Assembly: GCA_947629595.1 (NCBI GenBank)
Contig: CANREI010000002.1
Location: 1 to 35,042, forward strand
From: an uncultured Alphaproteobacteria bacterium
GTDB taxonomy: Bacteria > Pseudomonadota > Alphaproteobacteria > CAAHEQ01 > UBA3637
Direction: 5' to 3'
DNA length: 35,042 nucleotides
Shown here: positions 3,957 to 20,014 of the stretch, one piece after another
How the letters are laid out: each line of letters begins with the position of its first letter
How positions within the stretch are numbered: position 1 is the stretch's first letter
Notes under the pieces: model-generated
Told to the model about the DNA's origin: nothing
What the model saw: the letters and a program-made list of their open reading frames with translations, nothing else
Database searches by the model: none
Made by a program: the position numbers and the translations under genes

Positions 3957-5228
3957 TTAACTTTTCCAATTCATCAAAACATCTAACCCGTCTACATCAA
4001 ACACGGGAATATGATGCTTTATATATACCGCATGCCTTTCATGATAGGAATTATCTATAAAGACAGCTTTCTTCGGTGAAATATAATCGGCTTTATTATC
4101 ATTCGGTTTAATGTGTATTATGTCATCAAAAATGTTTTTGTGAATATGATAATATTCCATACTGTCAAAAATTTCTTTTTCGTGTTTTGTCAGTAAAATA
4201 ACTTTTTTATTATTATTTTGACACTGATATAAAAACCAAACGGCCTTTAAATTAACCTTATCACGCACAATCAGCGTATCATCAAAATCAAAATAAACCG
4301 TATCATAGTCATAATCAATTTTATAACGTCTGATTAAAGAACTATCCATTTTTACGTAATATGAGTTAGGTTCAACGGTAATATCGTAACCCATCACCGT
4401 ATAAACAGTCAACAACGGTAAATTAACACCGCATGCTCGGGTTAAAGCCATCGTTCCGGCACACCTGACGGAAACTTCCATCAGTTTCCAATGTTCATTT
4501 TTATCTTGCTTGATTTGAAACCACCACAATCCTAAAAATGAGAGCTTTTGATTTAAGAATTGAGCTATTTTTTGAATTTCCGGTGTTAATTTTTCAATTT
4601 GTCCGGCAACCGAAACACCCGCCATCACTCTTTGACGCGATCGGGGAGAAACCCATCTTAATTGTCCGTCTTTATCCGTCAGACAATCAACCGTATATTC
4701 CTTGCCCGGTAAATATTCACAAATAACATACGCATTTAAATTAACGTTCGGAATATCCTTCGGTGAATTGACTAACCGGGCACCAACGCCTCCTTGTCCT
4801 TCTTTCGGTTTAATAAAAACGGGATATTCCGTTATTTTCGAATATATCTTCGGTAAAAAATCAGCCCCGCTTAATGCTTTATATGTTTTTTCTTTATCAC
4901 GACAAATAACAGCGGTTTTTTGACAGGAACAAGCCAATTTGGCATGTATTTTTTTGGAATTTTCGGCCAAAACCATGGCAACCGAATCATGGGTCGGAAA
5001 AACAACATCAATTTTATTTTTATCTAAAAACAAATTAAAGCGCTCCAAAAAATCAGGCGCGGTTATCATCGGCAAGTCAGCCGTGTAGTTTTCAAAAATA
5101 TATGATCCGTGTCTGTCAACGGAAGAAGCTCCGAAAACATTGATATTTACACAACCGCATAAAGCATCATGTAATTCAACGGAATTTATTTCGCCGGCAG
5201 GAAAAACAAGAACGTTAATTTTTTGCAT
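3957..5228 (-). CDS. ATP-grasp enzyme fused to a C-terminal HAD-like domain
   Basis: 423-aa ORF. Residues about 100-290 look ATP-grasp-like (YPVFIKPKEGQGGVGARLV, ICEYLPGKEYTVDC). The C-terminal ~110 aa starts with the HAD motif I, VYFDFDDTLI (DxDxT). Candidate motifs II-IV follow (ILLTKH, NKADYI, VFIDNS). Confidence 0.6.
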   Translation of the reverse strand: MQKINVLVFPAGEINSVELHDALCGCVNINVFGASSVDRHGSYIFENYTADLPMITAPDFLERFNLFLDKNKIDVVFPTHDSVAMVLAENSKKIHAKLACSCQKTAVICRDKEKTYKALSGADFLPKIYSKITEYPVFIKPKEGQGGVGARLVNSPKDIPNVNLNAYVICEYLPGKEYTVDCLTDKDGQLRWVSPRSRQRVMAGVSVAGQIEKLTPEIQKIAQFLNQKLSFLGLWWFQIKQDKNEHWKLMEVSVRCAGTMALTRACGVNLPLLTVYTVMGYDITVEPNSYYVKMDSSLIRRYKIDYDYDTVYFDFDDTLIVRDKVNLKAVWFLYQCQNNNKKVILLTKHEKEIFDSMEYYHIHKNIFDDIIHIKPNDNKADYISPKKAVFIDNSYHERHAVYIKHHIPVFDVDGLDVLMNWKS

Positions 5229-7839: not shown

Positions 7840-8909
7840 ATTTCTTCCTTCAAAATTTGACAAATTTCCGACACTTTTTCATCGGTTAAATCCGGATATA
7901 AGGGCAAGCAGGCTATTCGAGAACAAATATCTTCCGAAATTTCACAACGCCCATTCAACAAATAGGGAAGTTTATTCAAACTGGGATAAAAATAGCGACG
8001 GGCAAAAATATCGGCTTTTTCCAAAGCTTTAAACACTCTTAAAAGTTCACTTTCATTTTTAAAAATAACCGGATAATAAGCATAATTATACTCTAAATTC
8101 TTTTGAAGCTTCGGGCGTTGCACAAAACCCGATAATTCTTTGTCATACAAATCAGAAACACGTTTCCGTTCCGAAATACATTTTTGAATAAAGCCGAAAT
8201 TTGCCAATCCCATCGCCGCATGAAATTCAGATTGTTTTGCATTTATTCCCAAACAAAAATGATTATCTCCATTATGTCCGAAACGTTTTTGCAATTCCAA
8301 TTTATCGGATACATTTTTCTCTTTTACAATAATGCCTCCGCCCTCTATTGTGTGAAAAAGCTTTGTGGCATGAAAAGAACAAGTACTGATATCACCATAA
8401 GAAAGAAGTGATTTTCCCTTATAGATTGAACCGAAGGCATGAGCGCCGTCATAAATAACTTTCAAATGATATTTATCGGCAATTTCTTGAATTTTATCCG
8501 TATCACAAGCATAACCGAACACATGCACGGCCATAACGGCCTTGGTTTTCGGTGTAACGGCTTCTTCAATTTTATTCGCATCAATGGTAAAATTGTTTGG
8601 TTCTATATCAACAAAAACCGGGGTGCATCTTTGCCATAAAATACTGCTGATTGTTGCCACATAAGAAAAGGGCGTTGTAATAACTTCCTCACCGTCAATA
8701 TCCAAAGCGTGTAATGCCAGTTGTAAAGCAACTGTTCCGTTTGTCACATAATGAAAATTTTTCACGCCCAAAAACTCGGAAAGTTTTTCAGACAATTCCG
8801 AAACACAAGGACCTTGATTTGTTAAAATACCTCTTTTGAAAATTTGTTCGACATATTTTTGATATTCTTCAATCGGCGGCATAAAGGATTTTGTAACATA
8901 TACACTCAT
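7836..8909 (-). CDS. DegT/DnrJ/EryC1/StrS-family sugar aminotransferase (acts on a dTDP-4-keto-6-deoxyhexose)
   Basis: Carries the NGTVALQLAL, IYDGAHAFGS and SFHATKLFHTIEGGGIIV (PLP lysine) motifs. The preferred start is at 8909 (MSVYVTK), in an ATGA overlap; the track starts at 8924. Confidence 0.8.
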   Translation of the reverse strand: MSVYVTKSFMPPIEEYQKYVEQIFKRGILTNQGPCVSELSEKLSEFLGVKNFHYVTNGTVALQLALHALDIDGEEVITTPFSYVATISSILWQRCTPVFVDIEPNNFTIDANKIEEAVTPKTKAVMAVHVFGYACDTDKIQEIADKYHLKVIYDGAHAFGSIYKGKSLLSYGDISTCSFHATKLFHTIEGGGIIVKEKNVSDKLELQKRFGHNGDNHFCLGINAKQSEFHAAMGLANFGFIQKCISERKRVSDLYDKELSGFVQRPKLQKNLEYNYAYYPVIFKNESELLRVFKALEKADIFARRYFYPSLNKLPYLLNGRCEISEDICSRIACLPLYPDLTDEKVSEICQILKEEI

Positions 8910-9739
8910 AATTTTTTTCTCCATAAAATCATTTTAAAAATTTTAATCAATAAAACATTATTTTTAGTCACTTTTTTCCTGTATACAAAAAACAACAGTT
9001 TTCTGAAAAAAAGACAATCAAAAATTGACTTTTTGTTCAGAATATCTTTAATTTCATATCCTTGATTTAACACCAAACACCCGAATACTCTTTCCATCAC
9101 ATGCGCTAATCCGACTTGTTGATGCGTTGAATCCGACAGTTCAAAATCCGCCATTTTCAAATTTAATTTTTTAAGCGGCTTTAAAATATTTGCCCGCACA
9201 ATAAATTGCGTTCCCGCCACATAACCGAATCGTTTTGCTTCAATTTCACACTTTTTTAAAAGCGCAACGGCTTTTTGTGCCGCCTCATCCGTTTCTTTTC
9301 CCGCAATGAGATGATAATTATCAATCATACCGATTTTCGGATTATTTTCCAATGCCCTCAAAACAGCTTTAAAATTATTTTTTGTTTTGATAAACTCTTG
9401 GGCATATTTTCTCCATTTGTTTTTACTCATATCATAATAATGACACACAGCCCCTATCGGCATATTTCTCTTGGTATGCAATTTAACAACATATCGATAA
9501 TGATTTAAATTCACTTTATTTAAAACATGCAGAAACGGTCCGACATCAAACCCTTTGTTTTCCACAATTTCAAAATGAGCGTTTTTGTTAAAATTGAATA
9601 TATCTTTTGCAATTCTTTTATTTTTTTCAACGGTTGTCACATATAAATCATACGGAACGGCAATATTTTTAAGACAGCTTATCAATTCTGCCGACAGTTC
9701 CGAATAATATATGTGCATAACAACCAGAATCGGTTTCAT
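8906..9739 (-). CDS. Rhamnan synthesis protein F (RgpF)-like polysaccharide biosynthesis protein
   Basis: The PILVVMHIYYSELSAELISCLKNIAVPYDLYVTT N-terminus is typical of the RgpF family. The preferred start is at 9739 (MKPILVV), in an ATGA overlap. Confidence 0.6.
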   Translation of the reverse strand: MKPILVVMHIYYSELSAELISCLKNIAVPYDLYVTTVEKNKRIAKDIFNFNKNAHFEIVENKGFDVGPFLHVLNKVNLNHYRYVVKLHTKRNMPIGAVCHYYDMSKNKWRKYAQEFIKTKNNFKAVLRALENNPKIGMIDNYHLIAGKETDEAAQKAVALLKKCEIEAKRFGYVAGTQFIVRANILKPLKKLNLKMADFELSDSTHQQVGLAHVMERVFGCLVLNQGYEIKDILNKKSIFDCLFFRKLLFFVYRKKVTKNNVLLIKIFKMILWRKKL

Positions 9740-10743
9740 TTTAAATACCACGCTATTGTTTTGATGATTCCCGTATCAAATGTTTCATCGGCATGCCAAC
9801 CGAGCTCGTTTTCCAATTTTGTCGCATCAATCGCATAGCGAAAATCGTGACCGGCTCTGTCTTGAACAAATGTAATTAAATCGGCATATTTAAGCCCGTT
9901 CGAACGGGGTTTCTTTTCATCTAAAACAGCACAGATTGTTTTCACGATTGTTAAATTATTTCGTTCGTTATGCCCGCCGATATTATATGTTTCGCCCGAT
10001 TTTCCTTTATGAAAAATCAAGTCAACGGCTTTACAGTGATCAAGCACATACAGCCAATCGCGCACATTTTCACCTTTGCCGTAAATCGGTAACGGTTGTT
10101 CGGCCAAAGCCTGTTTGATTATATGAGGAATTAACTTTTCATCATGTTGTTTCGGCCCGTAGTTATTTGAACAATTCGAGGTTGTGACATTCATACCGAA
10201 CGTGTGATGATAAGCCCGTACGATAAAATCGGAACTTGCTTTGCTGGCCGAATAGGGACTGTTGGGGGCATAGGGTGTTTTTTCCGTAAAAAATCCTTCT
10301 TTTCCCAAAGCGCCATACACTTCATCGGTTGAAATGTGATGAAAACGACAATCTTCATACCCTTTTTTCACCTTATTCGGCCCGTCCATCCAATAACGAA
10401 AAGCCACATCAATTAAAGTAAAAGTGCCTTCTATGTTTGTTTTAATAAAAGCACCCGGATTTTTAATGGAATTATCCACATGACTTTCCGCCGCAAAATG
10501 AATAACACCGCGAATATCATTTTCTTCAAATAATTTTTCAATGAAATCCCGATTGCAAATATCGCCTTGAACAAAAGTGTAATTTGACAAACCGACACAT
10601 TCTTTTAAGTTGTTCAGGTTGCCGGCATAAGTGAGCTTATCTACATTGATGAGATGATACGCGGGATATTTTTGTGCAAAATAAGGCACAAAGTTAGATC
10701 CGATAAACCCGGCTCCGCCCGTTACCAAAATTGACTTTTTCAT
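9736..10743 (-). CDS. rfbB: dTDP-glucose 4,6-dehydratase
   Basis: Has the SILVTGGAGFIGSNF Rossmann motif, the YSASKASSD catalytic YxxxK and HISTDEVYG. The preferred start is at 10743 (MKKSILV), in an ATGA overlap with the rfbD stop codon. Confidence 0.9.
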   Translation of the reverse strand: MKKSILVTGGAGFIGSNFVPYFAQKYPAYHLINVDKLTYAGNLNNLKECVGLSNYTFVQGDICNRDFIEKLFEENDIRGVIHFAAESHVDNSIKNPGAFIKTNIEGTFTLIDVAFRYWMDGPNKVKKGYEDCRFHHISTDEVYGALGKEGFFTEKTPYAPNSPYSASKASSDFIVRAYHHTFGMNVTTSNCSNNYGPKQHDEKLIPHIIKQALAEQPLPIYGKGENVRDWLYVLDHCKAVDLIFHKGKSGETYNIGGHNERNNLTIVKTICAVLDEKKPRSNGLKYADLITFVQDRAGHDFRYAIDATKLENELGWHADETFDTGIIKTIAWYLK

Positions 10744-11582
10744 TTGTTTTCCTCCAACAATTTGATGCATCTTTTTAACCCGTTTGTCCAATGGGGAATT
10801 TGAATACCGAAATCTTTTTTAATATGTTCCTTACTCAACACGCTGTAAAACGGACGCTTTGCTTTGGTCGGATAATCGGCCGATAAAATCGGCTGCACAC
10901 AACATTTTAAATGCGACATTTCCATAATTTCACGAGCAAAATCATACCAAGAACAAACGCCTTCATCGGTATAGTGATAAATTTTGTTTTGATATGCATC
11001 CGGACGGGGAAGAATTTGAACAATCGCCGCGGCTAAATCTGCCGCATAAGTGGGGCTTCCGATTTGATCGCATACCACATTCAATGTTTCACGCTCCGCC
11101 CCCAATCGCCGCATTGTTTTGACAAAGTTATTTCCATGAGAGGAATACAACCACGCCGTTCGAATAATAAGAGCCCGCGTGCTTTGCATAAGAACAGCTT
11201 CTTCTCCTAATCTTTTTGTTTTCCCGTAAACGGAAAGCGGGTGCGTTTTATCGGCGGGCGTATAGGGTTGAAACCCCGTTCCGTCAAAAACATAATCCGT
11301 GGAGATATGAATCATACGACAACCGGTACCGGCCAAATGGGCAGGCCCCGTTACATTGACGGCTCTTGCTTTTTCTTCATCTTCTTCGGCTTTATCAACG
11401 TTTGTGTAAGCGGCACAGTTGATAACGGTTTCAATTTTGTGTTCCTTCACAAACCTGTTGACCGCTTCTTTGTTTGTAATATCCAACTCCGGCATATCGG
11501 TTAAAACAGCATCAGGCAACAGATGCGCCAATTCGGTTCCCAATTGCCCCTTTGCACCGGTAATTAAAATTTTACTTCCCAT
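10740..11582 (-). CDS. rfbD: dTDP-4-dehydrorhamnose reductase
   Basis: 280 aa with ILITGAKGQLG, HISTDYVFDG and YGKTKRLGE motifs. It lies between rfbC and rfbB. Confidence 0.88.
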   Translation of the reverse strand: MGSKILITGAKGQLGTELAHLLPDAVLTDMPELDITNKEAVNRFVKEHKIETVINCAAYTNVDKAEEDEEKARAVNVTGPAHLAGTGCRMIHISTDYVFDGTGFQPYTPADKTHPLSVYGKTKRLGEEAVLMQSTRALIIRTAWLYSSHGNNFVKTMRRLGAERETLNVVCDQIGSPTYAADLAAAIVQILPRPDAYQNKIYHYTDEGVCSWYDFAREIMEMSHLKCCVQPILSADYPTKAKRPFYSVLSKEHIKKDFGIQIPHWTNGLKRCIKLLEENK

Positions 11583-12135
11583 ACATTTTCTCCCGCCTGA
11601 TTAAATCCGTTAACTTGTCGGCTGTTTTGTCTTTATCCGACGTGATAATTTTATCCGCGGGAATTTTCCAATCCACATTGATTTCGGGATCATCATATCG
11701 AATGCCGCATTCGGATTCTTTACAATAAAAGTTATCGACTTTATAAGCAAAAACAGCCTCATCGCTCAACACGGAAAATCCATGTAAAAAATGGCGCGGA
11801 ATAAACAACTGACGTTGATTTTCATCGGAAAGTTCCACGGCAACATATTTTCCGAACGTACGCGAACCGGGACGAACATCTACGGCCACATCAAGCACTT
11901 TCCCTTTTAAAACGCGAACAAGTTTGGCTTGACTGTGTTCTCCCAGCTGACAATGTAACCCGCGCACAACCCCGTAGGAAGATTTACTTTGATTATCCTG
12001 CACAAAATGATTGGGAATACCGTTTCGGGTAAATTCTTCCTCATTATAACTTTCAAAGAAATAGCCCCGTTGATCTTTAAAAATCTTGGGTTCAACTATC
12101 ATAACCCCCTCTATGTTTGTTTTAATAAAGTTCAT
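11572..12135 (-). CDS. rfbC: dTDP-4-dehydrorhamnose 3,5-epimerase
   Basis: MNFIKTNIEGVMIVEPKIFKDQRGYFFES...RGLHCQ...KLVRVLKGKVLDVAVD matches the RmlC cupin. The start is chosen at MNFIKT (12135); the track starts at 12147. Confidence 0.88.
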   Translation of the reverse strand: MNFIKTNIEGVMIVEPKIFKDQRGYFFESYNEEEFTRNGIPNHFVQDNQSKSSYGVVRGLHCQLGEHSQAKLVRVLKGKVLDVAVDVRPGSRTFGKYVAVELSDENQRQLFIPRHFLHGFSVLSDEAVFAYKVDNFYCKESECGIRYDDPEINVDWKIPADKIITSDKDKTADKLTDLIRREKMYGK

Positions 12136-13009
12136 GCTTTTCCTCATATACCTTTTGTAAATAAGAACGATATGTTCCCGGTTTTAATTCGTTGATTAAA
12201 GCGAGCATTTGCGCATCAGTGATAAAATTTCGTTTATAGGCCAGCTCCTCAATACATCCGATTTTCAATCCTTGCCGTTTTTCAATAATCGATACGAACA
12301 TACCGCTTTCCATAAGACTTTCCGGCGTTCCGGCATCAAGCCAGGCATTACCCCGTCTCATCGGCACAACACTCATACGCCCTTCTTGAAGATACAGATT
12401 ATTTAAATCCGTAATTTCCAATTCCCCGCGGGCCGACGGGCGAAGTCTGCGCGCTTTTTCCACAACATCAGCCGGATAAAAGTAAAGCCCGACCGATGCA
12501 TAATTTGATTTGGGATGTTCGGGCTTTTCCTCAATGGATACGGCTTTATGATTTTCATCAAACGCAACAACACCGAATCTTTCGGGATCCGCAACGTGAT
12601 AGGCAAAAATTGTAGCGGATTTTCCTTCATTTTCAGCCACTTCCTTTTTAAAAGTATCTAACTGATCGCCCATATAGAAAATATTATCGCCCAAAATTAA
12701 ACAAACATCGTCCTGTCCGATAAAATCGGCACCTATGGTAAAGGCTTGCGCGATGCCTTTGGGCTCCTCCTGAACGGCATATTGAACGGACATTCCTAAT
12801 TTGGAACCGTCTCCGAACAACTCTTCAATATCGGGCGTATCCTTCGGCGTGGATATGATTAAAATCTCTTTAATTCCGAACAACATTAACGTTGAAAGGG
12901 GATAATAAATCATGGGCTTATCATAAACGGGCAAAAGCTGTTTTGATGTTGTTTTCGTTAACGGATAAAGCCGTGAACCGCTGCCGCCGGCTAAAATAAT
13001 GCCTTTCAT
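12122..13009 (-). CDS. rfbA: Glucose-1-phosphate thymidylyltransferase
   Basis: MKGIILAGGSGSRLYPLTKTTSKQLLPVYDKPMIYYPL is the canonical RmlA N-terminus. 295 aa. Confidence 0.92.
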   Translation of the reverse strand: MKGIILAGGSGSRLYPLTKTTSKQLLPVYDKPMIYYPLSTLMLFGIKEILIISTPKDTPDIEELFGDGSKLGMSVQYAVQEEPKGIAQAFTIGADFIGQDDVCLILGDNIFYMGDQLDTFKKEVAENEGKSATIFAYHVADPERFGVVAFDENHKAVSIEEKPEHPKSNYASVGLYFYPADVVEKARRLRPSARGELEITDLNNLYLQEGRMSVVPMRRGNAWLDAGTPESLMESGMFVSIIEKRQGLKIGCIEELAYKRNFITDAQMLALINELKPGTYRSYLQKVYEEKHELY

Positions 13010-13896
13010 TTTGATGATGCCTCCTTTATTTTAACGGTTGTTTTACATTTAATAACGGGAAACACGCCGAATAAGTAGCAGGTTGATCGCATTTCCCGTG
13101 TTACGATTTTTAAAACAGGCAAGCCCAGAAAGTTAATTTGTCGAATACGCTTTGCTTTATACAAAAATTCTTCATACAAAGCCGGATTTTCTATCTTCAT
13201 GAAAGAGTAAATCGCATAACTTTTATTTTTCATTTTTTCCAATTGCTTATGCGATGTATTTCCCGCGTGATCACGATACAAAAACAATAATTCGTCTAAA
13301 TTATGGAATTTTGTAAAAGGTATCAGTCGACACCAAAGCGCATAATCTTCCGCCGGAGAAAATTCTTCTTCATAGCGTATATTATTCTCAATCAATACCG
13401 ATTTTCTGATCATTGCCGAGGGGTGTGCAATGGCACATCCGTGCATTAACGCCAGTTTAATATCATGATTATCCGTTAAAACAGAGGAAATTTGCCCTGA
13501 TATTGTTCTTTTCTTTGTTCCGACAACGCCCACATCAGGGTGCTCATCCAAATAGGCAACTTGTTTTTCAAACCGTTCGGGTAAAGAAATATCATCATGA
13601 TCCATGACGGCCAGATATTCGCCTTCGGCTAAATCAATCAACTTATTGCGACTTTTTGAAATACCGAGATTTTTTTCATTTTGAATATATTTAATCCGTT
13701 TATCTTTAAATGAACGAATAATCATTTCCAAGCGCGTATTTTCCGGACTGTCGTTTAAAATTAAAAACTCGAAATCTTTAAATGTTTGAGAAAGTATGCT
13801 TTGAACAGCCTCACGCAGAAATTCTTCTTTTGTATTGTAAACGGGCATTAAAACCGAAACTTTGGGTGCTTGCATCATTTTATCCTTTTTGTTCAA
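13006..13896 (-). CDS. Glycosyltransferase family 2; first gene of the minus-strand polysaccharide operon
   Basis: Carries KVSVLMPVYNTKEEFLREAVQSILSQTFKDFEFLILNDSP and MDHDDIS (the DxD motif). Confidence 0.8.
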   Translation of the reverse strand: MNKKDKMMQAPKVSVLMPVYNTKEEFLREAVQSILSQTFKDFEFLILNDSPENTRLEMIIRSFKDKRIKYIQNEKNLGISKSRNKLIDLAEGEYLAVMDHDDISLPERFEKQVAYLDEHPDVGVVGTKKRTISGQISSVLTDNHDIKLALMHGCAIAHPSAMIRKSVLIENNIRYEEEFSPAEDYALWCRLIPFTKFHNLDELLFLYRDHAGNTSHKQLEKMKNKSYAIYSFMKIENPALYEEFLYKAKRIRQINFLGLPVLKIVTREMRSTCYLFGVFPVIKCKTTVKIKEASSK

Positions 13897-14081
13897 ACAG
13901 ACTTAAAATTTTTGCGTTTCCTAAACAGCACATTTATGATGATAATTTATGAAACCCCGTTTTTTCTTATCAAAAAAACATCGGTTTTCAAAGCACTGTT
14001 TATAAACAATCGGACTATATCATATTTATTTTAATAAAACAAGCATAAAAAAACCTTGTTGAAATTTTAACATTATTTTTC

Positions 14082-14110
14082 TTGAAATGAGGCATAAAAT
14101 CGTGTATAAT
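14082..14110 (+). promoter_or_regulatory. Sigma-70-type promoter of the 570-aa gene
   Basis: TTGAAA (14082-14087), a 17-bp spacer, then TATAAT (14105-14110). A GGGAGA Shine-Dalgarno lies at 14130-14135 and the ATG at 14140. Confidence 0.55.
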
Positions 14111-14139: not shown

Positions 14140-15852
14140 ATGATGGCAGTAAATAACAACGAAACCGCACAAGAAATACCTGCGCAGAATTACGGTCAAA
14201 AATTAAAAAAAGTTTTGAAAGAAGCCGAAGAAGTTTTAAAAACAGAAAATGTACAGAAAATTTTTAAAACCGTTATGCCTTCTGTTTATGGAGCCGTTCA
14301 GGCACTCAATACGGCTGATGATTTGCTTTTAAAAAAATCAGAAGCCTCTTCAAACCGTCAGACCTCTTCGCCCTCTCCTGCCAAAAAAGAACTGGCCGTT
14401 TATAAAACGCTTTCCGAAAAAGAATGGCAACAATATTTCGGTTTGATTGATACAACACAGTTAAGTCAGGAACAATCAAAACGATTAAGAACCTATTTAA
14501 AAGACAATGCCGAAAAAGAACCTTATTTACGTCGTTTGGTGCGAGAAACCATTCAACACGGCAAGCCTATCACCGTTTCATCAACCCCCGATGATTGGGA
14601 AAAATTAAAAAATGATAATGCCACAGGCGTTACCGACTGGAAATCAAGGAATATCAGTTTATTACCGGAAGAACTGGTCACGCCTGCCATGTTTCATGAA
14701 ATTCTTCATATCGGACAAGGTGATGACGGACTGGGAGAAGAATCAACCGCCTGTTCGCGTGAAGTGATTCAAAAACAACGTAAACTCATTGAAGCAGAAG
14801 CCATGTCTGTTGACTATTTATGCTATTATGCTCTCAATAATACGCAGGATACCCTTTCCGATGAGCTTGCCAACGGAAAAAATGCTTATGAACCTGATTA
14901 TTTTCGCAAGCTGGTTGAAAAAAACAAAAAAGAACTTCATCAAAAACAAAAAGATATTCCTGCCGATTTAACCGACGAAGAAAAAGAACTTTTTATTCAC
15001 ACGCAAGCCGTTAATCACGCCATGGGGGCATCAATTCATATTTTAATGCAGCCGGAAGGCAAAAAAACGCAAGAAGCAGCTGCTGCTTACGATATTGAAT
15101 TAACAGATAAAGATCTTTGTTTCGTGAACTGGTGGAAACAATTCTATAACAACGATCATAAAAAGTGGATCTGCGGTATTTATTCAAAGGAAGAAGATGA
15201 ACCGACAAATCGTGTTTTTAATTTGAAAAAAATGCAATTTATTCAAAATTATATGACCAATCGTTATCCCGACTTAAAGGGAAAAGATTTTCTGGTTACC
15301 GGCTTAACCGATGCCGAACAAAAATCATGGGATATTCGCGAAAAGGGTCTCTATTACAGTGATTTGTTCTCCGATGAACAAATTAAAGCCATCAATCTTT
15401 ATTACCAAAGCGAAGAAAGAAATATACCATATACATTTTCAAAAGAAGCAGATACGAATCAACCAAAAACACTGCCGCTCACAAATGAAGAAATGAACTA
15501 TTTACAACAACTGGATGAAATTCAAGCCGGCAAAAAAAACGAAACGGATATGGCTATGCCCGCCTCATTAAAAAATTTAATTGAGACACAAGAAAAAACT
15601 TTACAATATCACTCACAAGACAAAGAGCTTGCCGCATTTCAAAAATTGGAAGCTTCCAGAAAGGAATTATTTGAAAAGGAAAATCAACAACCCGATTTAG
15701 CTGCCGCAATCAAACAAAATGCGCAAAAATGTGGTTCATTTATGGGACACGAATTAGAAAGTTTAACTGCCGCAATCAATGCCGCGCAAGAATACAAGGA
15801 AAATGATAACACTTCTTCAACCGCTTCGCGGGAATCGGGAAAAGAGAGGTAA
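14140..15852 (+). CDS. Orphan 570-aa protein with an HExxH zincin-like motif, no signal peptide, and a K/E/Q-rich, probably helical sequence
   Basis: Long ORF behind a consensus promoter and RBS. HEILH lies at residues 186-190 (nt 14695-14709), in the context TPAMFHEILHIGQGDDGLGEES. I recognise no other domain. Confidence 0.6.
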   Translation: MMAVNNNETAQEIPAQNYGQKLKKVLKEAEEVLKTENVQKIFKTVMPSVYGAVQALNTADDLLLKKSEASSNRQTSSPSPAKKELAVYKTLSEKEWQQYFGLIDTTQLSQEQSKRLRTYLKDNAEKEPYLRRLVRETIQHGKPITVSSTPDDWEKLKNDNATGVTDWKSRNISLLPEELVTPAMFHEILHIGQGDDGLGEESTACSREVIQKQRKLIEAEAMSVDYLCYYALNNTQDTLSDELANGKNAYEPDYFRKLVEKNKKELHQKQKDIPADLTDEEKELFIHTQAVNHAMGASIHILMQPEGKKTQEAAAAYDIELTDKDLCFVNWWKQFYNNDHKKWICGIYSKEEDEPTNRVFNLKKMQFIQNYMTNRYPDLKGKDFLVTGLTDAEQKSWDIREKGLYYSDLFSDEQIKAINLYYQSEERNIPYTFSKEADTNQPKTLPLTNEEMNYLQQLDEIQAGKKNETDMAMPASLKNLIETQEKTLQYHSQDKELAAFQKLEASRKELFEKENQQPDLAAAIKQNAQKCGSFMGHELESLTAAINAAQEYKENDNTSSTASRESGKER

Positions 15853-15944
15853 ATAATTTCGGATACATTATTAAGATCAATTTTTACGACTTAAAAAATT
15901 TGTGAAAGTGCATATTTTAAAAGGAAATAAGAATGATTACCCAA

Positions 15945-16430
15945 AAGAAGAACTCAATGATAATACGTCGTGCAACACCGGAAGATGCTCCATTCGTTAA
16001 AAAGGTTCAAGTGGAAACTTATCAAAGTTGTTATCGCGGTTATCTGCCTGATGACGCGTTAGATGCACTGGTTGTCAATGAGGATTATATTCAACGCACT
16101 GCCGCCTATATTCAAAAGACAGAGTGTTGGGTTGCACAAACAGATCATCAGATTATCGGTTTTTCATATATAACCTATCCCGAACCGAATACTTTTGAAA
16201 TCAATGCCTTATATATTCATCCCGATTTTCAACTCAAAGGAATAGGCTCCATGTGGGTATCCGAACTGTGCGCCGAAAAAAAAGAAAAAGGGTTTCAAAA
16301 GCTGGTTGTTTGGACGTTAAAAAACGGTCCGTCTATCGGTTTTTATCAAAAAATGGGATTAACTCAAATTGCCGAAGAAGAGAAAATATGGAAACCTTAT
16401 AATCTCCCCATTATTCGGTTTGAAAAGAAA
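15945..16430 (+). repeat. Direct repeat A (about 486 bp), paired with 19383-19868
   Basis: Aligns without gaps at a fixed offset of 3438 nt. By eye I count about 14 mismatches across the 480-nt GNAT coding part. Confidence 0.9.
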
Positions 16431-16436
16431 TTATAA
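15957..16436 (+). CDS. GNAT-family N-acetyltransferase, copy 1
   Basis: MIIRRATPEDAPFV..., IGFSYI and ALYIHPDFQLKGIGS (the acetyl-CoA Q/RxxGxG motif). The track ORF starts at 15933 (MITQKKNS-). The start shared with copy 2 is 15957. Confidence 0.8.
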   Translation: MIIRRATPEDAPFVKKVQVETYQSCYRGYLPDDALDALVVNEDYIQRTAAYIQKTECWVAQTDHQIIGFSYITYPEPNTFEINALYIHPDFQLKGIGSMWVSELCAEKKEKGFQKLVVWTLKNGPSIGFYQKMGLTQIAEEEKIWKPYNLPIIRFEKKL

Positions 16437-16527: not shown

Positions 16528-17493
16528 TTATGAAAGCTGCTCATTTGATGCGTGACTCGGAAAAATCACGGTCACATGGTTGCCCCATGTGTAAAGATGC
16601 CAATCCATTTCCATACGACCGCCGCAACGAAAACGCACCGTCAGTGTGCCATCGGGATTTTTGCGCATACTTTGAGACGGATGAAATATATAATGAGACG
16701 CTTCATCAGCTGTTTCTTTATCAAAAAGCCATTCCACATCAATCGGATCCTCCTGAAAAACGCCGAAGGATTGTTCCGCATATTTTTGAAGTGAAAAATC
16801 AGTCGGATATACAAATACATCGGGCAAAATTTTAACTTCTTTTACGTTCATTAAAATAAAGTTATGCGGCAAACCGTTTCCAAAGCCGTCGGAATGAATG
16901 GCAACCAGATAGTGATTTCTTTCACCATATAAAAAGCCCAACGGATTAAGCGTATTATAACTGGTTTTTTTGCTGTTTTTATTTTGATACGTGATTCGAA
17001 TTTGATGACAAGACAAAATAGCCTCACGAATAGCGTTTAAAACAGCCTCATCAATTTTAATTTTCGGCCCCGGACGACAGGCAATGCCTTCCGCACGCAT
17101 CAGCTCTTCCGCATCCGGCTCAATTCTGCGAAAAGTTTCCGCCTTTATGGAAGCTTTGATTTTCTTGATAATGCCGTCCAATTGATCGGCTTTTTCATGC
17201 AAATGACTTTTTTGCAAAGCTTCCTTTGCTATATTAAGGCAAGATAACTCATCGGCACTAAATTGAATAATATCGCGCAAGGTTCCCTGCGGAATATACC
17301 ACCGCTTTTCCCGCGTTCCCGAGTCCGTTTCAAGAGCCTGCGGAAAGCGCAATAAAATTAAATCACGCATTCGATCTGCCGTCCGTTTGGAAACACCGAA
17401 ACGATTCATAATATCTTTTAAACTGACGCCTTCACGAGAAGATTGCATCCATACGGCCAGATCAAGCAATTGTTCTGTTTTTTCATAAGACAT
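16528..17493 (-). CDS. WYL-domain transcriptional regulator with BrxR/CapW/YafY-like architecture (wHTH-WYL-WCX)
   Basis: N-terminal wHTH: GVSLKDIMNRFGVSKRTADRMRDLI. Central WYL-type core: HQIRITYQNKNSKKTSYNTLNPLGFLYGERNHYLVAIH...FILMNVKEVKIL. C-terminal region: IDVEWLF...IFHPSQSMRKNPDGTLTVRF...WGNHVTVIFPS. I prefer the start at 17493 (MSYEKTEQ), which has an AGAGAGG RBS. The track start at 17517 would lie upstream of the predicted transcription start site. Confidence 0.8.
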   Translation of the reverse strand: MSYEKTEQLLDLAVWMQSSREGVSLKDIMNRFGVSKRTADRMRDLILLRFPQALETDSGTREKRWYIPQGTLRDIIQFSADELSCLNIAKEALQKSHLHEKADQLDGIIKKIKASIKAETFRRIEPDAEELMRAEGIACRPGPKIKIDEAVLNAIREAILSCHQIRITYQNKNSKKTSYNTLNPLGFLYGERNHYLVAIHSDGFGNGLPHNFILMNVKEVKILPDVFVYPTDFSLQKYAEQSFGVFQEDPIDVEWLFDKETADEASHYIFHPSQSMRKNPDGTLTVRFRCGGRMEMDWHLYTWGNHVTVIFPSHASNEQLS

Positions 17494-17515
17494 GGAACCT
17501 CTCTTTCGAAAATAC

Positions 17516-17544
17516 ATTTTACGAAATTTTCTTTAAAAAGACAA
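17516..17544 (-). promoter_or_regulatory. Putative promoter of the WYL regulator gene
   Basis: Minus-strand TTGTCT (17544-17539), a 17-bp spacer, then TAAAAT (17521-17516). Confidence 0.35.
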
Positions 17545-17589
17545 GAAAAATACGTCAATATCTGACAACATTTTGTTTTATTTTATTTC

Positions 17590-17619
17590 TTGACAACCTT
17601 ACAATTGTATTTTAATAAT
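17590..17619 (+). promoter_or_regulatory. Putative promoter of the PD-(D/E)XK gene
   Basis: Consensus -35 TTGACA (17590-17595), an 18-bp spacer, then AATAAT (17614-17619). AAGGAG lies at 17628-17633, 7 nt before the ATG at 17641. The TTG that the ORF track treats as a start codon is this -35 element. Confidence 0.45.
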
Positions 17620-17640
17620 TATCAGAAAAGGAGCATACTT

Positions 17641-18666
17641 ATGAAACCAACGGAAAACCCGAATATTTTTGATTTTGCCACCAGTGAACTGTCGCAAGAT
17701 GCGTTTATTTGTTATATGCTCAATTTTGATGCGCCTGCCAAACTTTTTTTGGAAAAGTGTAACATTACAGGCGAAAAAATTGTTAATATAAAACGACAAT
17801 ATTCGGCTAACACGCCCAAATGTAAAGGACATATTGATATTTTGGTTGAAACAGAAAAACATTACTTGATTATTGAAGATAAAACCGGAACAAATGAACA
17901 CGGTAATCAAATTCAAAGATATTGTGATGCCCTTTTAAAGGATTCATCTTCAGATAAAAACAAACCAATTCATGCTTGTTATGTTAAAACAGATTATCTG
18001 TCAGAGCAGGAAAAAAATGACCTGAAGGAAAAGCATCCTATTTCCTTTATCTGTTTAAAAGACTTATTAGACTGTTGTGTGACACAACAATTCAAAGATA
18101 ACTCTATTGCCAAACAATGGTATGAACATTTTGTGAAGAACTACAATTTCATGCAGGAAGAATTAACCAAAGAGTTGAGTTACAAAACACAAAACGACAA
18201 ACGTATTTATCTTGATCGATTAACAACCAAAATCAAAAAGGAAACCGACAATTTATATAAAGATGCGTGGTGGTTCCTAGCTTCCGGTGCTGACAAAACA
18301 CCTCATATTGAGCTTTGCTGGCCTGAAAGAAAAAAAGTAACCAACCATTGGGGGCAACCGGCTTTCTACGTGATGCCGGAAAACAAAGAAAAACCCTTAC
18401 GACTTGTTGTAAAATATCATTTCTATGACGCCGAAAAAGGAGGAAGTCGTATCAAAACGCCTTATTCCGACGTTGACAAAGAAAAATTAGAAGAAATCAG
18501 AAAAAATCTACCTCAACCGGAGGGCTGGAAAGTTAAAAATGTCAAGAAAAAAGACCTTTTAATGCTTATAGAGAAAGAAGTGAAAGAAGAAGATTTGATA
18601 AACACGCTCAAAGCCGAAAAAAAGAATATTGAAAAAATTTTCGCTGCGATTGAGGCAATCAACTAA
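17641..18666 (+). CDS. PD-(D/E)XK nuclease-family protein (341 aa) with an uncharacterised C-terminal domain
   Basis: The N-terminus NIFDFATSELSQDAFICYML, followed by GHIDILVETEKHYLIIEDKTGTNEHGNQIQRY, gives D66-x12-E79-x-K81 plus a QxxRY helix. That is the PD-(D/E)XK signature. Residues about 170-341 show no motif I recognise. Confidence 0.7.
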   Translation: MKPTENPNIFDFATSELSQDAFICYMLNFDAPAKLFLEKCNITGEKIVNIKRQYSANTPKCKGHIDILVETEKHYLIIEDKTGTNEHGNQIQRYCDALLKDSSSDKNKPIHACYVKTDYLSEQEKNDLKEKHPISFICLKDLLDCCVTQQFKDNSIAKQWYEHFVKNYNFMQEELTKELSYKTQNDKRIYLDRLTTKIKKETDNLYKDAWWFLASGADKTPHIELCWPERKKVTNHWGQPAFYVMPENKEKPLRLVVKYHFYDAEKGGSRIKTPYSDVDKEKLEEIRKNLPQPEGWKVKNVKKKDLLMLIEKEVKEEDLINTLKAEKKNIEKIFAAIEAIN

Positions 18667-18685
18667 CCCTGTCATCATTTGACAT

Positions 18686-18724
18686 ACCTCCTTTTTATAC
18701 TGTCCGTATTGAAAGGAGGTTTTT
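18686..18724 (+). terminator. Strong hairpin plus U-tract between the nuclease gene and the 145-aa gene; its 3' arm contains the downstream Shine-Dalgarno
   Basis: ACCTCCTTT (18686-18694) pairs with AAAGGAGGT (18712-18720). An inner ATAC/GTAT stem extends it, with a 5-nt loop. TTTT follows at 18721-18724 and the ATG at 18725. Confidence 0.5.
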
Positions 18725-19162
18725 ATGAAAAATTTATTTGCTTATATACCCGATAACCGGATTATTCCGCTCATTGAAAACATAAATCTGCCGCAAGGGA
18801 TTCGTCCCGTTGAGATAAATGACTTATGTTACTTTCCTTATCAAACTGTTGAAAACTGCATTATTCTTTTGAGTCTGACCGGGCGGGAAGTTCTGCGCGA
18901 AAAAGAAACAAAGCTGATACAAGCCGTTTTAAACGCTCCCAAAACAACCGTTTTTTTGCTTTTAACGCCTTTTAATTTTGAAACCGAAACGAATTTAAAT
19001 CGGGTTTATGAACAATTAAAAATGCTTTATGAACATCAAGTCAATTTTGAAGAATTGGTATTGAACGAAAAACCTTATTTGACTTATGAACAAGCTTTTC
19101 AAGAAATTCGACAAGTGATCGAGTTAATTGCTCAAGCGATCTTTAAAACATTTAACGGTTAA
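18725..19162 (+). CDS. Orphan 145-aa protein of unknown function, co-oriented with the nuclease gene
   Basis: ORF with a strong SD (AAAGGAGG) 5 nt upstream. There is no signal peptide, no transmembrane segment and no recognisable motif. Confidence 0.55.
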   Translation: MKNLFAYIPDNRIIPLIENINLPQGIRPVEINDLCYFPYQTVENCIILLSLTGREVLREKETKLIQAVLNAPKTTVFLLLTPFNFETETNLNRVYEQLKMLYEHQVNFEELVLNEKPYLTYEQAFQEIRQVIELIAQAIFKTFNG

Positions 19163-19185
19163 ACAGTGCGGAAAATACATTTTTC

Positions 19186-19214
19186 TTGAAATAAGGTATA
19201 AAATCGTGTATAAT
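19186..19214 (+). promoter_or_regulatory. Second copy of the 570-aa-gene promoter
   Basis: TTGAAA (19186-19191), a 17-bp spacer, then TATAAT (19209-19214). The 36-nt block 19179-19214 matches 14075-14110 with 2 mismatches. Confidence 0.5.
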
Positions 19215-19234
19215 GGCATTGGGAATGGTATGAA

Positions 19235-19394
19235 TCTGTTCCTGGAACCGTTCAGGCAATCAATACGGCTGAGAATTTATTTGTAAAAAAATCAGAAGCA
19301 GCCAGAAAGGAATTATTTGAAAACAAAAATCAACAACCCAATTTAGCTGCTACAATCAAACAAAACGCACAAGAATATTCGGAAGAAGAACTCA
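19235..19394 (+). pseudogene. Internally deleted remnant of a paralogue of the 570-aa HExxH gene
   Basis: 19235-19300 aligns with 14281-14346 (the SVYGAVQALNTADDLLLKKSEA region). 19302-19372 aligns with 15656-15726 (the RKELFEKENQQPDLAAAIKQNAQ region). The ancestral reading frame is still open across both pieces, but it has no start codon after the upstream TAA. Confidence 0.7.
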
Positions 19395-19868
19395 ATGATA
19401 ATACGTCGTGCAACACCGGAAGATGCTCCATTCGTTAAAAAGGTTCAAGTGGAAACTTATCAAAGTTGTTATCGCGGTTATCTGCCTGATGAGGCGTTAG
19501 ATGCACTTGTTGTCAATGAGGATTATATTCAACGCACTGCTGCCTATATTCAAAAGACAGAGTGTTGGGTTGCACAAACAGATAATCAGATTATCGGTTT
19601 TTCATATATAACCTATCCCGAACCGGATACTTTTGAAATCAATGCATTATATATTCATCCCGATTTTCAACTCAAAGGAATAGGTTCAATGTGGGTATCC
19701 GAACTGTGCGCCGAAAAAAAAGAGAAAGGGTTTCAAAAGCTGGTTGTTTGGACGTTAAAAAACGGTCCGTCTATCGGCTTTTATCAAAAAATGGGATTAA
19801 CTCAAATTGCCGAAGAAGAGAAAATATGGAAACCTTACAATCTTCCCATTATTCGGTTTGAAAAGGAA
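19383..19868 (+). repeat. Direct repeat B, paired with 15945-16430
   Basis: Same alignment as repeat A. Confidence 0.9.
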
Positions 19869-19874
19869 TTGTAA
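19395..19874 (+). CDS. GNAT-family N-acetyltransferase, copy 2
   Basis: 159 aa, differing from copy 1 at 4 residues (D32E, H64N, N77D, K157E). Confidence 0.8.
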   Translation: MIIRRATPEDAPFVKKVQVETYQSCYRGYLPDEALDALVVNEDYIQRTAAYIQKTECWVAQTDNQIIGFSYITYPEPDTFEINALYIHPDFQLKGIGSMWVSELCAEKKEKGFQKLVVWTLKNGPSIGFYQKMGLTQIAEEEKIWKPYNLPIIRFEKEL

Positions 19875-19937: not shown

Positions 19938-20014
19938 TGGTGGGTCCGGAGGGACTCGAACCCCCGACCAGACCGTTATGAGCGGCCAGCTCTAACCAAC
20001 TGCGCTACAGACCC
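19938..20014 (-). tRNA. tRNA with a CAU anticodon: elongator Met, or Ile2 if lysidinylated. CCA end is encoded.
   Basis: The reverse complement GGGTCTGTAGCGCAGTTGGTTAGAGCTGGCCGCTCATAACGGTCTGGTCGGGGGTTCGAGTCCCTCCGGACCCACCA folds as a cloverleaf. It has a 7-bp acceptor stem, a CT-CAT-AA anticodon loop and a GGTTCGAGTCC T-arm. Confidence 0.9.

Follow-up and report, generated by a model that had tools for sequence, protein, structure and literature searches.

DriD of Caulobacter crescentus is a homodimeric activator whose WYL domain binds single-stranded DNA (ssDNA), after which the DNA site ATACGAC-N7-GTCGTAT is bound (PMC9186387, PMC13004042). Its targets include its divergent operon, the endonuclease gene bapE and the division inhibitor didA (PMC13004042, PMC12340889, PMC9186387). 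Caulobacter promoters bound by DriD have a poor -35 element that the DriD site overlaps, and residues R121, R122, P125 and E128 of DriD have roles in contacting RNA polymerase (PMC13004042). Among other WYL proteins, CapW is an ssDNA-sensing repressor (PMC11662680), and DdaA activates damage-response as well as anti-phage genes (PMC12392091). The protein family PF14281 has been on record since 2012 as one of unknown function (PMC3424549); the literature yielded nothing on this family beyond "unknown", and only a passing mention of the PADLOC candidate PDC-S26. Here, a cassette is described from a stretch of 35,042 nucleotides (the window; contig CANREI010000002.1 of assembly GCA_947629595.1, positions 1 to 35,042) of an uncultured gut alphaproteobacterium, in which a DriD-like WYL gene lies divergently from a PF14281 nuclease gene that is followed by an orphan gene. 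With a confidence that falls just short of even, we read it as an ssDNA- or damage-responsive DriD-family regulator that would control the divergently transcribed operon of a PF14281 nuclease, on DNA that is variable and was once mobile. A preliminary description, made from the letters alone, had already placed the three genes, with the WYL regulator on the minus strand, and the spacer of 147 bp, and the listing of open reading frames (ORFs) agrees with these positions:

16528-17493, minus strand: DriD-family regulator of 321 aa with wHTH-3HB-WYL-WCX layout, ATG at 17493 (ORF listing)
17494-17640: divergent control region of 147 bp between regulator and nuclease (direct reading of the sequence)
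17641-18666, plus strand: nuclease of 341 aa, including both domains (ORF listing)
18725-19162, plus strand: orphan gene encoding 145 aa (ORF listing)

A DriD-family regulator paired with a two-domain nuclease

By sequence, the regulator is a DriD family member over its full length. When it was compared with all PDB chains by phmmer, the DriD entries 9pfq, 8tp8, 9cu3, 7tzv and 7u02 were matched, the best of them (9pfq and 8tp8) at E 3e-57 across query residues 1-313 and with 36.9% identity over 306 aligned residues. Structures of BrxR and CapW are present in the PDB, and up to E<=10 the search returned the DriD entries and two chance hits, with neither BrxR nor CapW among them. The assignment to the BrxR/CapW type made in the preliminary description is thus superseded. 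As DriD is an ssDNA-triggered activator, the accompanying view of a toxic effector kept repressed is therefore not the default expectation either. The domain matches are those of a WYL protein (Pfam WYL 7.6e-8, WCX 4.3e-6, PADLOC WYL models 7e-20), with weak matches to helix-turn-helix models, and a longer reading of the ORF, of 329 aa, begins at 17517. All four residues with which DriD contacts the C-terminal domain of the RNA-polymerase alpha subunit (alpha-CTD), R121, R122, P125 and E128, are conserved in the window regulator.

On the other side of the control region, the profile match to PF14281 (PDDEXK_4; 1.3e-10, residues 33-166, 42 bits against a cut-off of 22.3) identifies the nuclease as a member of the PD-(D/E)XK superfamily. 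The D66-x12-E79-x-K81 signature that had been noticed in the letters is real, and conservation bears it out, with D66, E79, D80 and K81 invariant in 120/120 homologues; the same holds for E16, D20, Q53, H87, Q90, Y94 and K116. PDC-S26 matches the core of the nuclease alone (6.9e-9, 33.6 bits, profile positions 70-165 of 413), and the nuclease profile found nothing among PDB sequences at E<=1. For the whole AlphaFold2 model (predicted local distance difference test (pLDDT) 86, predicted template modelling score 0.84), Foldseek gave weak matches to the nuclease domain, all of them restriction-endonuclease-like folds. These were the small subunit of R.BspD6I (9.8e-3), the R2 retrotransposon endonuclease domain, Card1, Can2, Bax1 and phage 'PD-(D/E)XK' proteins. 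The protein divides as follows:

17641-18135, plus strand: conserved N-terminal PD-(D/E)XK domain, residues 1-165 (PF14281, partial PDC-S26, invariant residues)
18136-18666, plus strand: swapped C-terminal domain, residues 166-341 plus the stop codon (no match to a family or in the PDB)

Neither the C-terminal ~175 aa of the nuclease nor the 145-aa protein has a match in Pfam, NCBIfam, PADLOC or PHROGs, as had been suspected at the outset. A homology search with the C-terminal domain only returned nothing, not even its own full-length protein, which is probably an effect of the tool or its filter on a K/E-rich sequence. At least two unrelated types of this domain occur in the family: the type of the window is also found in the relatives P0002, P0013 and P0019, and another is found in L002 (numbers with L denote loci of relatives or of other strains). 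Between the window and L002, identity is 84% in the WYL protein, 64% in the first 110 residues of the nuclease and 22% in the C-terminal domain; between L001 and L002 the corresponding values are 95%, 79% and 21%. Conservation picks up again right after the nuclease stop codon. Near-identical regulators thus accompany unrelated C-terminal domains, which are exchanged as cassettes between conserved flanks. Specificity modules in conflict systems typically show such swaps, which do not in themselves prove that this domain is one.

Conservation of the pair and its neighbourhoods

The neighbourhood survey covered 80 loci of nuclease relatives in species-representative genomes, and their ORFs were searched with profiles of the components. 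A WYL gene lies within 7 kb of the nuclease gene (<=7 kb) in 16/80 loci and directly adjacent to it in 8/80. The adjacent gene is divergent in L006, L007, L008, L011 and L033, divergent with a mini-FtsZ gene in between in L010, co-directional and upstream of the nuclease in L072 (Bacteroidales), and co-directional and downstream in L077 (Pseudomonadales). Adjacent pairs are thus found in three orientations and in Alphaproteobacteria, Gammaproteobacteria and Bacteroidales. The metagenomic relatives L001 and L002 have the divergent layout of the window. Because the pair recurs across phyla and orientations, there is good evidence of a functional link, and it is the regulator-nuclease pair that forms the conserved unit. 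Given an assumed rarity of WYL genes, this linkage probably lies above chance.

Linkage of the nuclease with the 145-aa gene, on which the preliminary description had made its proposal depend, is limited to near relatives: the 145-aa family lies downstream of the nuclease solely in L002, L004 and L005. In that place L006 (2845-3159), L007, L008 and L011 carry a 104-aa 'MEYYYVDGEIHEDW' repeat protein, whose family is present in six loci, and L015 (7968-8255) carries a 95-aa 'NDKYD...' protein of a family present in eight. Neither of these small repeat proteins has a family match, and both are unrelated to the 145-aa family. Another unrelated gene, that of a mini-FtsZ, stands in for it upstream of the nuclease in L010. 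A word-index search found 12 close relatives of the 145-aa protein, and when 1.84 billion representative proteins were searched exhaustively with the family profile, 10 clusters were returned. As the 145-aa gene belongs to a narrow clade and gives way to other genes elsewhere, the trio is not a conserved system, and the proposal of a three-gene module as the unit is not upheld.

Other genes recur around the nuclease. In L001 and L002, a gene for a DnaB_C-type (helicase-like) ATPase that is absent from the window follows the WYL gene, and in L006, L008 and L011 genes for a DEDDh exonuclease and DnaB_C come next in the block. Across the 80 loci the recurrent neighbours are a DEDDh (RNase_T) exonuclease (14 loci), PrimPol-DUF3987 (12), an XRE-type regulator (11) and DnaB_C (7), in addition to tyrosine integrases. 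The nuclease lies inside a phage morphogenesis cluster in L009 and L012. Its family is rare in viral contigs, with two loci, and a mainly phage-borne origin was rejected on this count of relatives. A hidden Markov model (HMM) scan of 148 representative neighbours found LmuB, AriA, SspE/GmrSD, PDC-S01, HEC-05 and mad3.

Some of these neighbours are worth recording in their own right. DEDDh (RNase_T/DnaQ-like) genes near the nuclease or WYL gene are found in L057 (10429-10944), L072 (10286-10807), L006 (4625-5170) and others, a recurrence that spans Alphaproteobacteria, Bacteroidales and Verrucomicrobia; in L057 there is an overlap between the exonuclease gene and the end of the WYL gene. In L013-L017 and L032 (~8700-14100), a conserved integrative element of gut Alphaproteobacteria has the nuclease as cargo. 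This element comprises a tyrosine integrase, a 154-aa protein, PrimPol-DUF3987, a DnaB_C-like ATPase and a 117-aa protein, with an XRE-type regulator beside the nuclease. L032 also encodes, near the nuclease, a 493-aa protein with an N-terminal motif that is TIR-like by eye.

Control elements of the cassette

Within the 147-bp spacer, which has blocks of conservation in common with L001 and L002, the following elements were recognised:

17550-17570: operator-like site 1, ATACGTC-AATATCT-GACAACA, with the core palindrome GTCA-N5-TGAC at 17554-17566
17590-17619, plus strand: promoter-like site of the nuclease operon, TTGACA-18-AATAAT (11/12 in a consensus scan)
17600-17609: palindrome TACAATTGTA, between the -35 and -10 hexamers of the nuclease promoter-like site
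17544-17516, minus strand: putative promoter-like site of the WYL gene, TTGTCT-17-TAAAAT (9/12 in the consensus scan)

Compared with the DriD consensus ATACGAC-N7-GTCGTAT, the predicted site 1 agrees in 6/7 positions of the left half and 2/7 of the right half. A DriD-like box is present in all divergent WYL-nuclease spacers examined, and right half-sites are better in relatives than in the window, for example GTCGTAT in L006:

L001, L002, WYL-nuclease spacer: TGTCA-N5-TGACA
L006, L008, L011, WYL-nuclease spacer: GTGCGCC-ATATTCT-GTCGTAT
L007, WYL-nuclease spacer: GTACGTC-ATATTTT-GTCGTGT
L033, WYL-nuclease spacer: ATGCGTC-ACATTTT-GTCGTGT
L010, WYL-nuclease spacer: ATACGCC-ATTATTT-GACATAG

The motif GTCA-N5-TGAC occurs twice in the 35-kb window against 0.23 copies expected, a count reached in 4/100 shuffles, and both copies sit at regulatory positions of the cassette. 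Back-to-back promoters had been proposed for the spacer, and this stands in part. There are consensus matches on both strands, and the plus-strand site is kept in L001 and L002 as TTGACT-N17-TAAAAT or TATAAT, where the palindrome TACAATTGTA is also retained as ATAC-N2-GTAT; the number of promoter-like sites in the region is, however, not above that of shuffled sequence. Site 1 ends 20 nt upstream of the consensus TTGACA hexamer, so that the overlap with the -35 element typical of DriD is not found in the window, whereas the box does overlap the TTGACA hexamer in L010 and L036.

A second set of elements follows the nuclease gene:

18671-18683: operator-like site 2, GTCATCATTTGAC, starting 5 nt past the nuclease stop codon, second GTCA-N5-TGAC
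18686-18724, plus strand: hairpin and U-run, stem 18686-18719 followed by UUUUU (RNA fold)

Site 2, which is kept in L002, L004 and L005, could serve as a second operator, a looping partner or a roadblock. The hairpin has a predicted stability of -21.5 kcal/mol (z = -6.05; 0/200 shuffles as stable), and the Shine-Dalgarno sequence of the 145-aa gene lies in its 3' arm. L002, L004 and L005 have kept the hairpin as well, chiefly via sequence conservation. This element looks like a terminator, an attenuator or a trap for the ribosome-binding site that would uncouple the 145-aa gene from the nuclease. The preliminary description had missed it, and was right in noting no terminator after the 145-aa gene, where the scan found no terminator-like site. 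Shine-Dalgarno sequences precede the regulator, nuclease and 145-aa genes.

The 145-aa protein

The AlphaFold2 model of the 145-aa protein (pLDDT 86.6) is a three-layer alpha/beta fold. Foldseek matched it to CENP-M (a pseudo-GTPase), flavodoxin-like and receiver-like domains and Rab GTPases at template modelling (TM) scores of ~0.5, from which the modelled fold would be flavodoxin-like or pseudo-GTPase-like. The structural search suggested earlier has thus given a weak restriction-endonuclease-like answer for the nuclease and generic alpha/beta folds for its small companion.

When the family profile was compared with the PDB, FtsZ accounted for 5/8 matches and for the top ones, at E 0.045-1.6. 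These matches share one register, with family residues ~72-137 aligned to FtsZ ~117-196 depending on the species, and the 145-aa protein has SLTG at the place of the glycine-rich GTP-binding motif GGGTGTG. An hhalign comparison of the family with a hand-entered E. coli FtsZ sequence gave a probability of 21%, and Pfam Tubulin matched no member of the family. On the weak E-values, the hhalign probability and the lack of a Tubulin match, an identity as an FtsZ fragment was rejected, and FtsZ is kept as a weak lead.

In L010, a DriD-like WYL gene and a PF14281 nuclease gene have between them a gene (3963-4481) that overlaps the nuclease start codon and encodes a 172-aa mini-FtsZ, reduced to the GTPase domain (FtsZ E 4.6e-4, Pfam Tubulin 0.0088). 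No relationship between the 145-aa family and this mini-FtsZ was detectable.

Proposed mechanism and alternative explanations

In the mechanism that we propose, a homodimeric WYL protein, assigned to its family by homology, would bind the spacer box at 17550-17570 and probably also its second copy (18671-18683). As DriD, CapW, PafBC and DdaA suggest by analogy, it may sense ssDNA that arises from DNA damage or from phage or plasmid replication, and this would alter transcription of the divergent operon. Activation via the alpha-CTD of RNA polymerase is favoured here because the four alpha-CTD contact residues are conserved, with derepression as the alternative. The main product would be a two-domain enzyme. 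Its N-terminal PD-(D/E)XK domain, evident from fold and residues, presumably cuts nucleic acid, and its exchanged C-terminal domain may set the specificity for a target or partner. The 145-aa protein could be a lineage-specific accessory that possibly modulates or inhibits the nuclease; its expression might be gated by the hairpin, either as a terminator or by hiding the ribosome-binding site. The net effect would be a damage- or infection-induced nuclease, acting either in anti-phage or anti-plasmid defence (abortive infection) or in BapE-like self-destruction or repair. Defence, a BapE-like damage response and a role for a mobile element are each candidates, and a stress- or phage-triggered nuclease module is plausible. 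By analogy, the cassette would work like the DriD/DdaA/CapW class of WYL-controlled damage or immunity genes.

Several observations weigh against this reading. The beta-subunit contacts G18 and A20 of DriD are replaced by S and R in the window regulator; a G18K/A20K mutant of DriD has been tested (PMC13004042), and a preprint predicts that bulkier side chains at these positions sterically block the beta-subunit contact (PMC12340889). Of seven ssDNA contacts, two (Y168, Y192) are identical and five are substituted (W206F, R204H, K202L, R178N, S172N). The geometry of the spacer also differs: site 1 is centred ~66 nt before the likely start of transcription and lies farther upstream, by about two helical turns, than the site of DriD promoters. 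In addition, a consensus promoter such as that of the nuclease speaks for expression that is constitutive or repressed and not dependent on an activator. On the direction of regulation the sequence points both ways: the alpha-CTD contacts favour activation, and the consensus promoter together with the loss of the beta-subunit contacts favours another mode. At the level of the survey, 64/80 loci have no WYL gene within 7 kb (<=7 kb). The scan of 148 neighbours also returned ribosomal protein S2, EF-Ts and ATP synthase, and the neighbourhoods thus mix defence and mobile genes with housekeeping genes. PADLOC, for its part, yields a partial match to a candidate family and no more. Finally, the accessory role proposed for the 145-aa protein is a guess.

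Some observations would suit a self-contained three-gene anti-phage system, in which a BrxR/CapW-type repressor silences the PD-(D/E)XK effector and an obligatory 145-aa partner until infection. Repression would go well with the near-consensus nuclease promoter, the conserved palindrome TACAATTGTA lies between its -35 and -10 hexamers, and the boxes of L010 and L036 overlap the TTGACA -35 hexamer. Defence genes are found near some relatives, the nuclease core matches PDC-S26, and CapW provides a precedent for an ssDNA-sensing repressor (PMC11662680). However, the regulator is a close homologue of DriD with no detectable similarity to BrxR or CapW, and the 145-aa gene is limited to a narrow clade with unrelated genes in its place elsewhere. 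This explanation is held to be unlikely. The DriD homology and the conserved alpha-CTD contacts would fit a chromosomal DriD-type damage regulon with an SOS-independent activator, a repair or BapE-like suicide nuclease and, as checkpoint factor, the small protein, possibly an FtsZ-derived division inhibitor like didA. DriD itself activates its divergent operon, bapE and didA (PMC13004042, PMC9186387), FtsZ tops the PDB matches of the 145-aa profile in one register (E 0.045-1.6), and the 172-aa mini-FtsZ of L010 lies between the WYL gene and the nuclease. Against this stand the strain-variable region with duplicated paralogues in which the cassette lies and the relatives in integrative elements and a prophage, which are atypical of a core regulon. 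The link between the 145-aa protein and FtsZ is not significant (21% probability, no Tubulin, generic alpha/beta folds), nor does the family show a detectable relation to the L010 mini-FtsZ. Altogether, a core damage regulon appears improbable.

We give similarly little credence to the cassette being a decayed piece of an integrative element, with the WYL protein as a stress switch like a prophage repressor and a nuclease that serves the element (in replication, excision or competitor exclusion) and not the host. The helicase-like DnaB_C gene after the WYL gene in L001 and L002, the continuation of the block with DEDDh exonuclease and DnaB_C in L006, L008 and L011, and the position of the nuclease beside DnaB_C, PrimPol-DUF3987 and a tyrosine integrase in L013-L017 and L032 all point in this direction, as do the tRNA-Met adjoining the window cassette and a serine recombinase in the region in L093. 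Yet the window contains no integrase, no replication gene and no recognisable element ends, and the nuclease family is rare in viral contigs (2 loci). Purifying selection on all three genes without the element suggests a function for the host or the cassette. A divergent nuclease operon under a DriD-family regulator on formerly mobile DNA is the reading that we retain. A far more speculative version of it, which we regard as very improbable, is a mobile two-part checkpoint for infection or damage: a DriD-type ssDNA sensor would drive a nuclease with a C-terminal specificity domain shuffled between strains, together with an FtsZ-derived pseudo-GTPase that halts division while the nuclease acts, making the cassette a mobile, modular counterpart of the Caulobacter didA/bapE response used as abortive-infection immunity. 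The division-stopping part would then be the 145-aa protein here, in degenerate form, and the overt mini-FtsZ in L010.

PF14281 is a widespread PD-(D/E)XK family, with >500 relatives detected, and the recurring WYL partner of the ssDNA-sensing type offers a concrete, testable cue for the timing of nuclease production. The DriD paradigm would thereby be extended from the core damage response of one model organism to accessory DNA of uncultured gut Alphaproteobacteria, and natural domain-swap variants are available for working out how the nuclease is targeted. If the cassette proved protective, a WYL-controlled single-effector system would be added to the defence catalogue, and PDC-S26 would gain a functional relative.

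Surroundings of the cassette

The genomic context had been described as accessory DNA between a sugar locus and a tRNA gene, and this is borne out. An rml/glycosyltransferase sugar locus lies upstream of the cassette, and tRNA-Met (19938-20014), CarD and rpoC lie on the other side; the region differs from strain to strain. Two features flank the module directly:

15933-16436, plus strand: GNAT copy 1, outside the module (Pfam Acetyltransf_1; 98% repeat of copy 2)
19179-19874, plus strand: 546/598-aa paralogue remnant (19179-19376) joined to GNAT copy 2 (19395-19874), flank (repeats D1-D3 and D5; comparison with L094)

The remnant at 19179-19376 consists of the promoter and of N- and C-terminal fragments of a 546/598-aa-type paralogue. 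Other strains, L094 among them, have intact 546- and 598-aa genes after the 145-aa gene, and recombination in the window has left the paralogue remnant fused to the second GNAT copy. Rfam identified two tRNAs in the window and nothing else. Neither an integrase nor a replication gene nor an element boundary could be recognised in the window, and among the strains compared no empty site that would define insertion boundaries was found. Comparison with contigs of other strains of the same species gave ratios of nonsynonymous to synonymous polymorphism (pN/pS) of 0.24 for the regulator, 0.03 for the nuclease and 0.12 for the 145-aa gene. Purifying selection thus acts on all three.

The paralogues form an array of 546-598-aa genes around the cassette (window 14140-15852 and 19179-19376; L094 2968-6520), accompanied by GNAT genes. 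Its members have 54-69% identity to the 570-aa copy, and all have HExxH at residue 186. The 570-aa paralogue of the window has no match in Pfam, PHROG, PADLOC or NCBIfam, a scan that covered this copy and not the 546- and 598-aa ones. The array may encode secreted metalloprotease-like effectors under copy-number flux. In one strain (L093, 172-851), the stretch directly upstream of CarD, where the window has GNAT copy 2 and tRNA-Met, contains genes for a serine recombinase (Resolvase) and a DUF2924 protein, a further indication that mobile DNA is taken up at this site.

Comparison with known systems

The cassette belongs to no named defence system, nor is it proven to be a three-gene system for defence. 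As the preliminary description had supposed, PADLOC HMMs matched no named system in it, with hits to the WYL protein and a partial hit of PDC-S26 to the nuclease only. Its closest counterpart is found in the DriD system itself, with which it shares a full-length homologous regulator of the same wHTH-3HB-WYL-WCX layout with the alpha-CTD contacts kept, the divergent arrangement and, within the short control region between the divergent genes, a putative pseudo-palindromic box of the ATACGnC-N7 type. An endonuclease, bapE, likewise belongs to the DriD regulon. The differences lie in the operon, which encodes a PF14281 nuclease and an orphan protein in the window and a protein of unknown function and a TonB-dependent transporter in the case of DriD. 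They also lie in the box, which is about two helical turns further upstream and beside a consensus promoter, in the substituted beta-subunit contacts and most ssDNA contacts, and in the accessory, variable nature of the window locus.

BrxR and CapW resemble the window regulator in general architecture and in having a potentially toxic effector adjacent on variable DNA, and CapW senses ssDNA; the window regulator has no detectable sequence similarity to their structures, however, and neither BREX, CBASS nor another named system is adjacent. DdaA of Moraxellaceae and SiwR of mycobacteria are likewise WYL activators of damage-response genes upon DNA damage, with DdaA also acting on anti-phage genes and SiwR controlling adjacent genes. 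Both belong to other WYL subfamilies, and their targets are known repair, restriction-modification or CRISPR genes without a PF14281 nuclease. On the effector side, PDC-S26, a PADLOC single-gene candidate of ~400 aa, has the PF14281-type PD-(D/E)XK core in common with the window nuclease, but the profile match is partial and the C-terminal domain unrelated, and PDC-S26 is itself unvalidated and defined without a WYL partner. The N-terminal domain belongs to the same fold class as Card1, Can2 and other restriction-endonuclease-like effectors, as far as weak Foldseek matches indicate (E ~0.01-0.06, TM ~0.2). Unlike Card1 and Can2, the window nuclease has no CARF or other known sensor domain, and its control is proposed to be transcriptional, through the divergent WYL regulator, rather than by a cyclic oligonucleotide.

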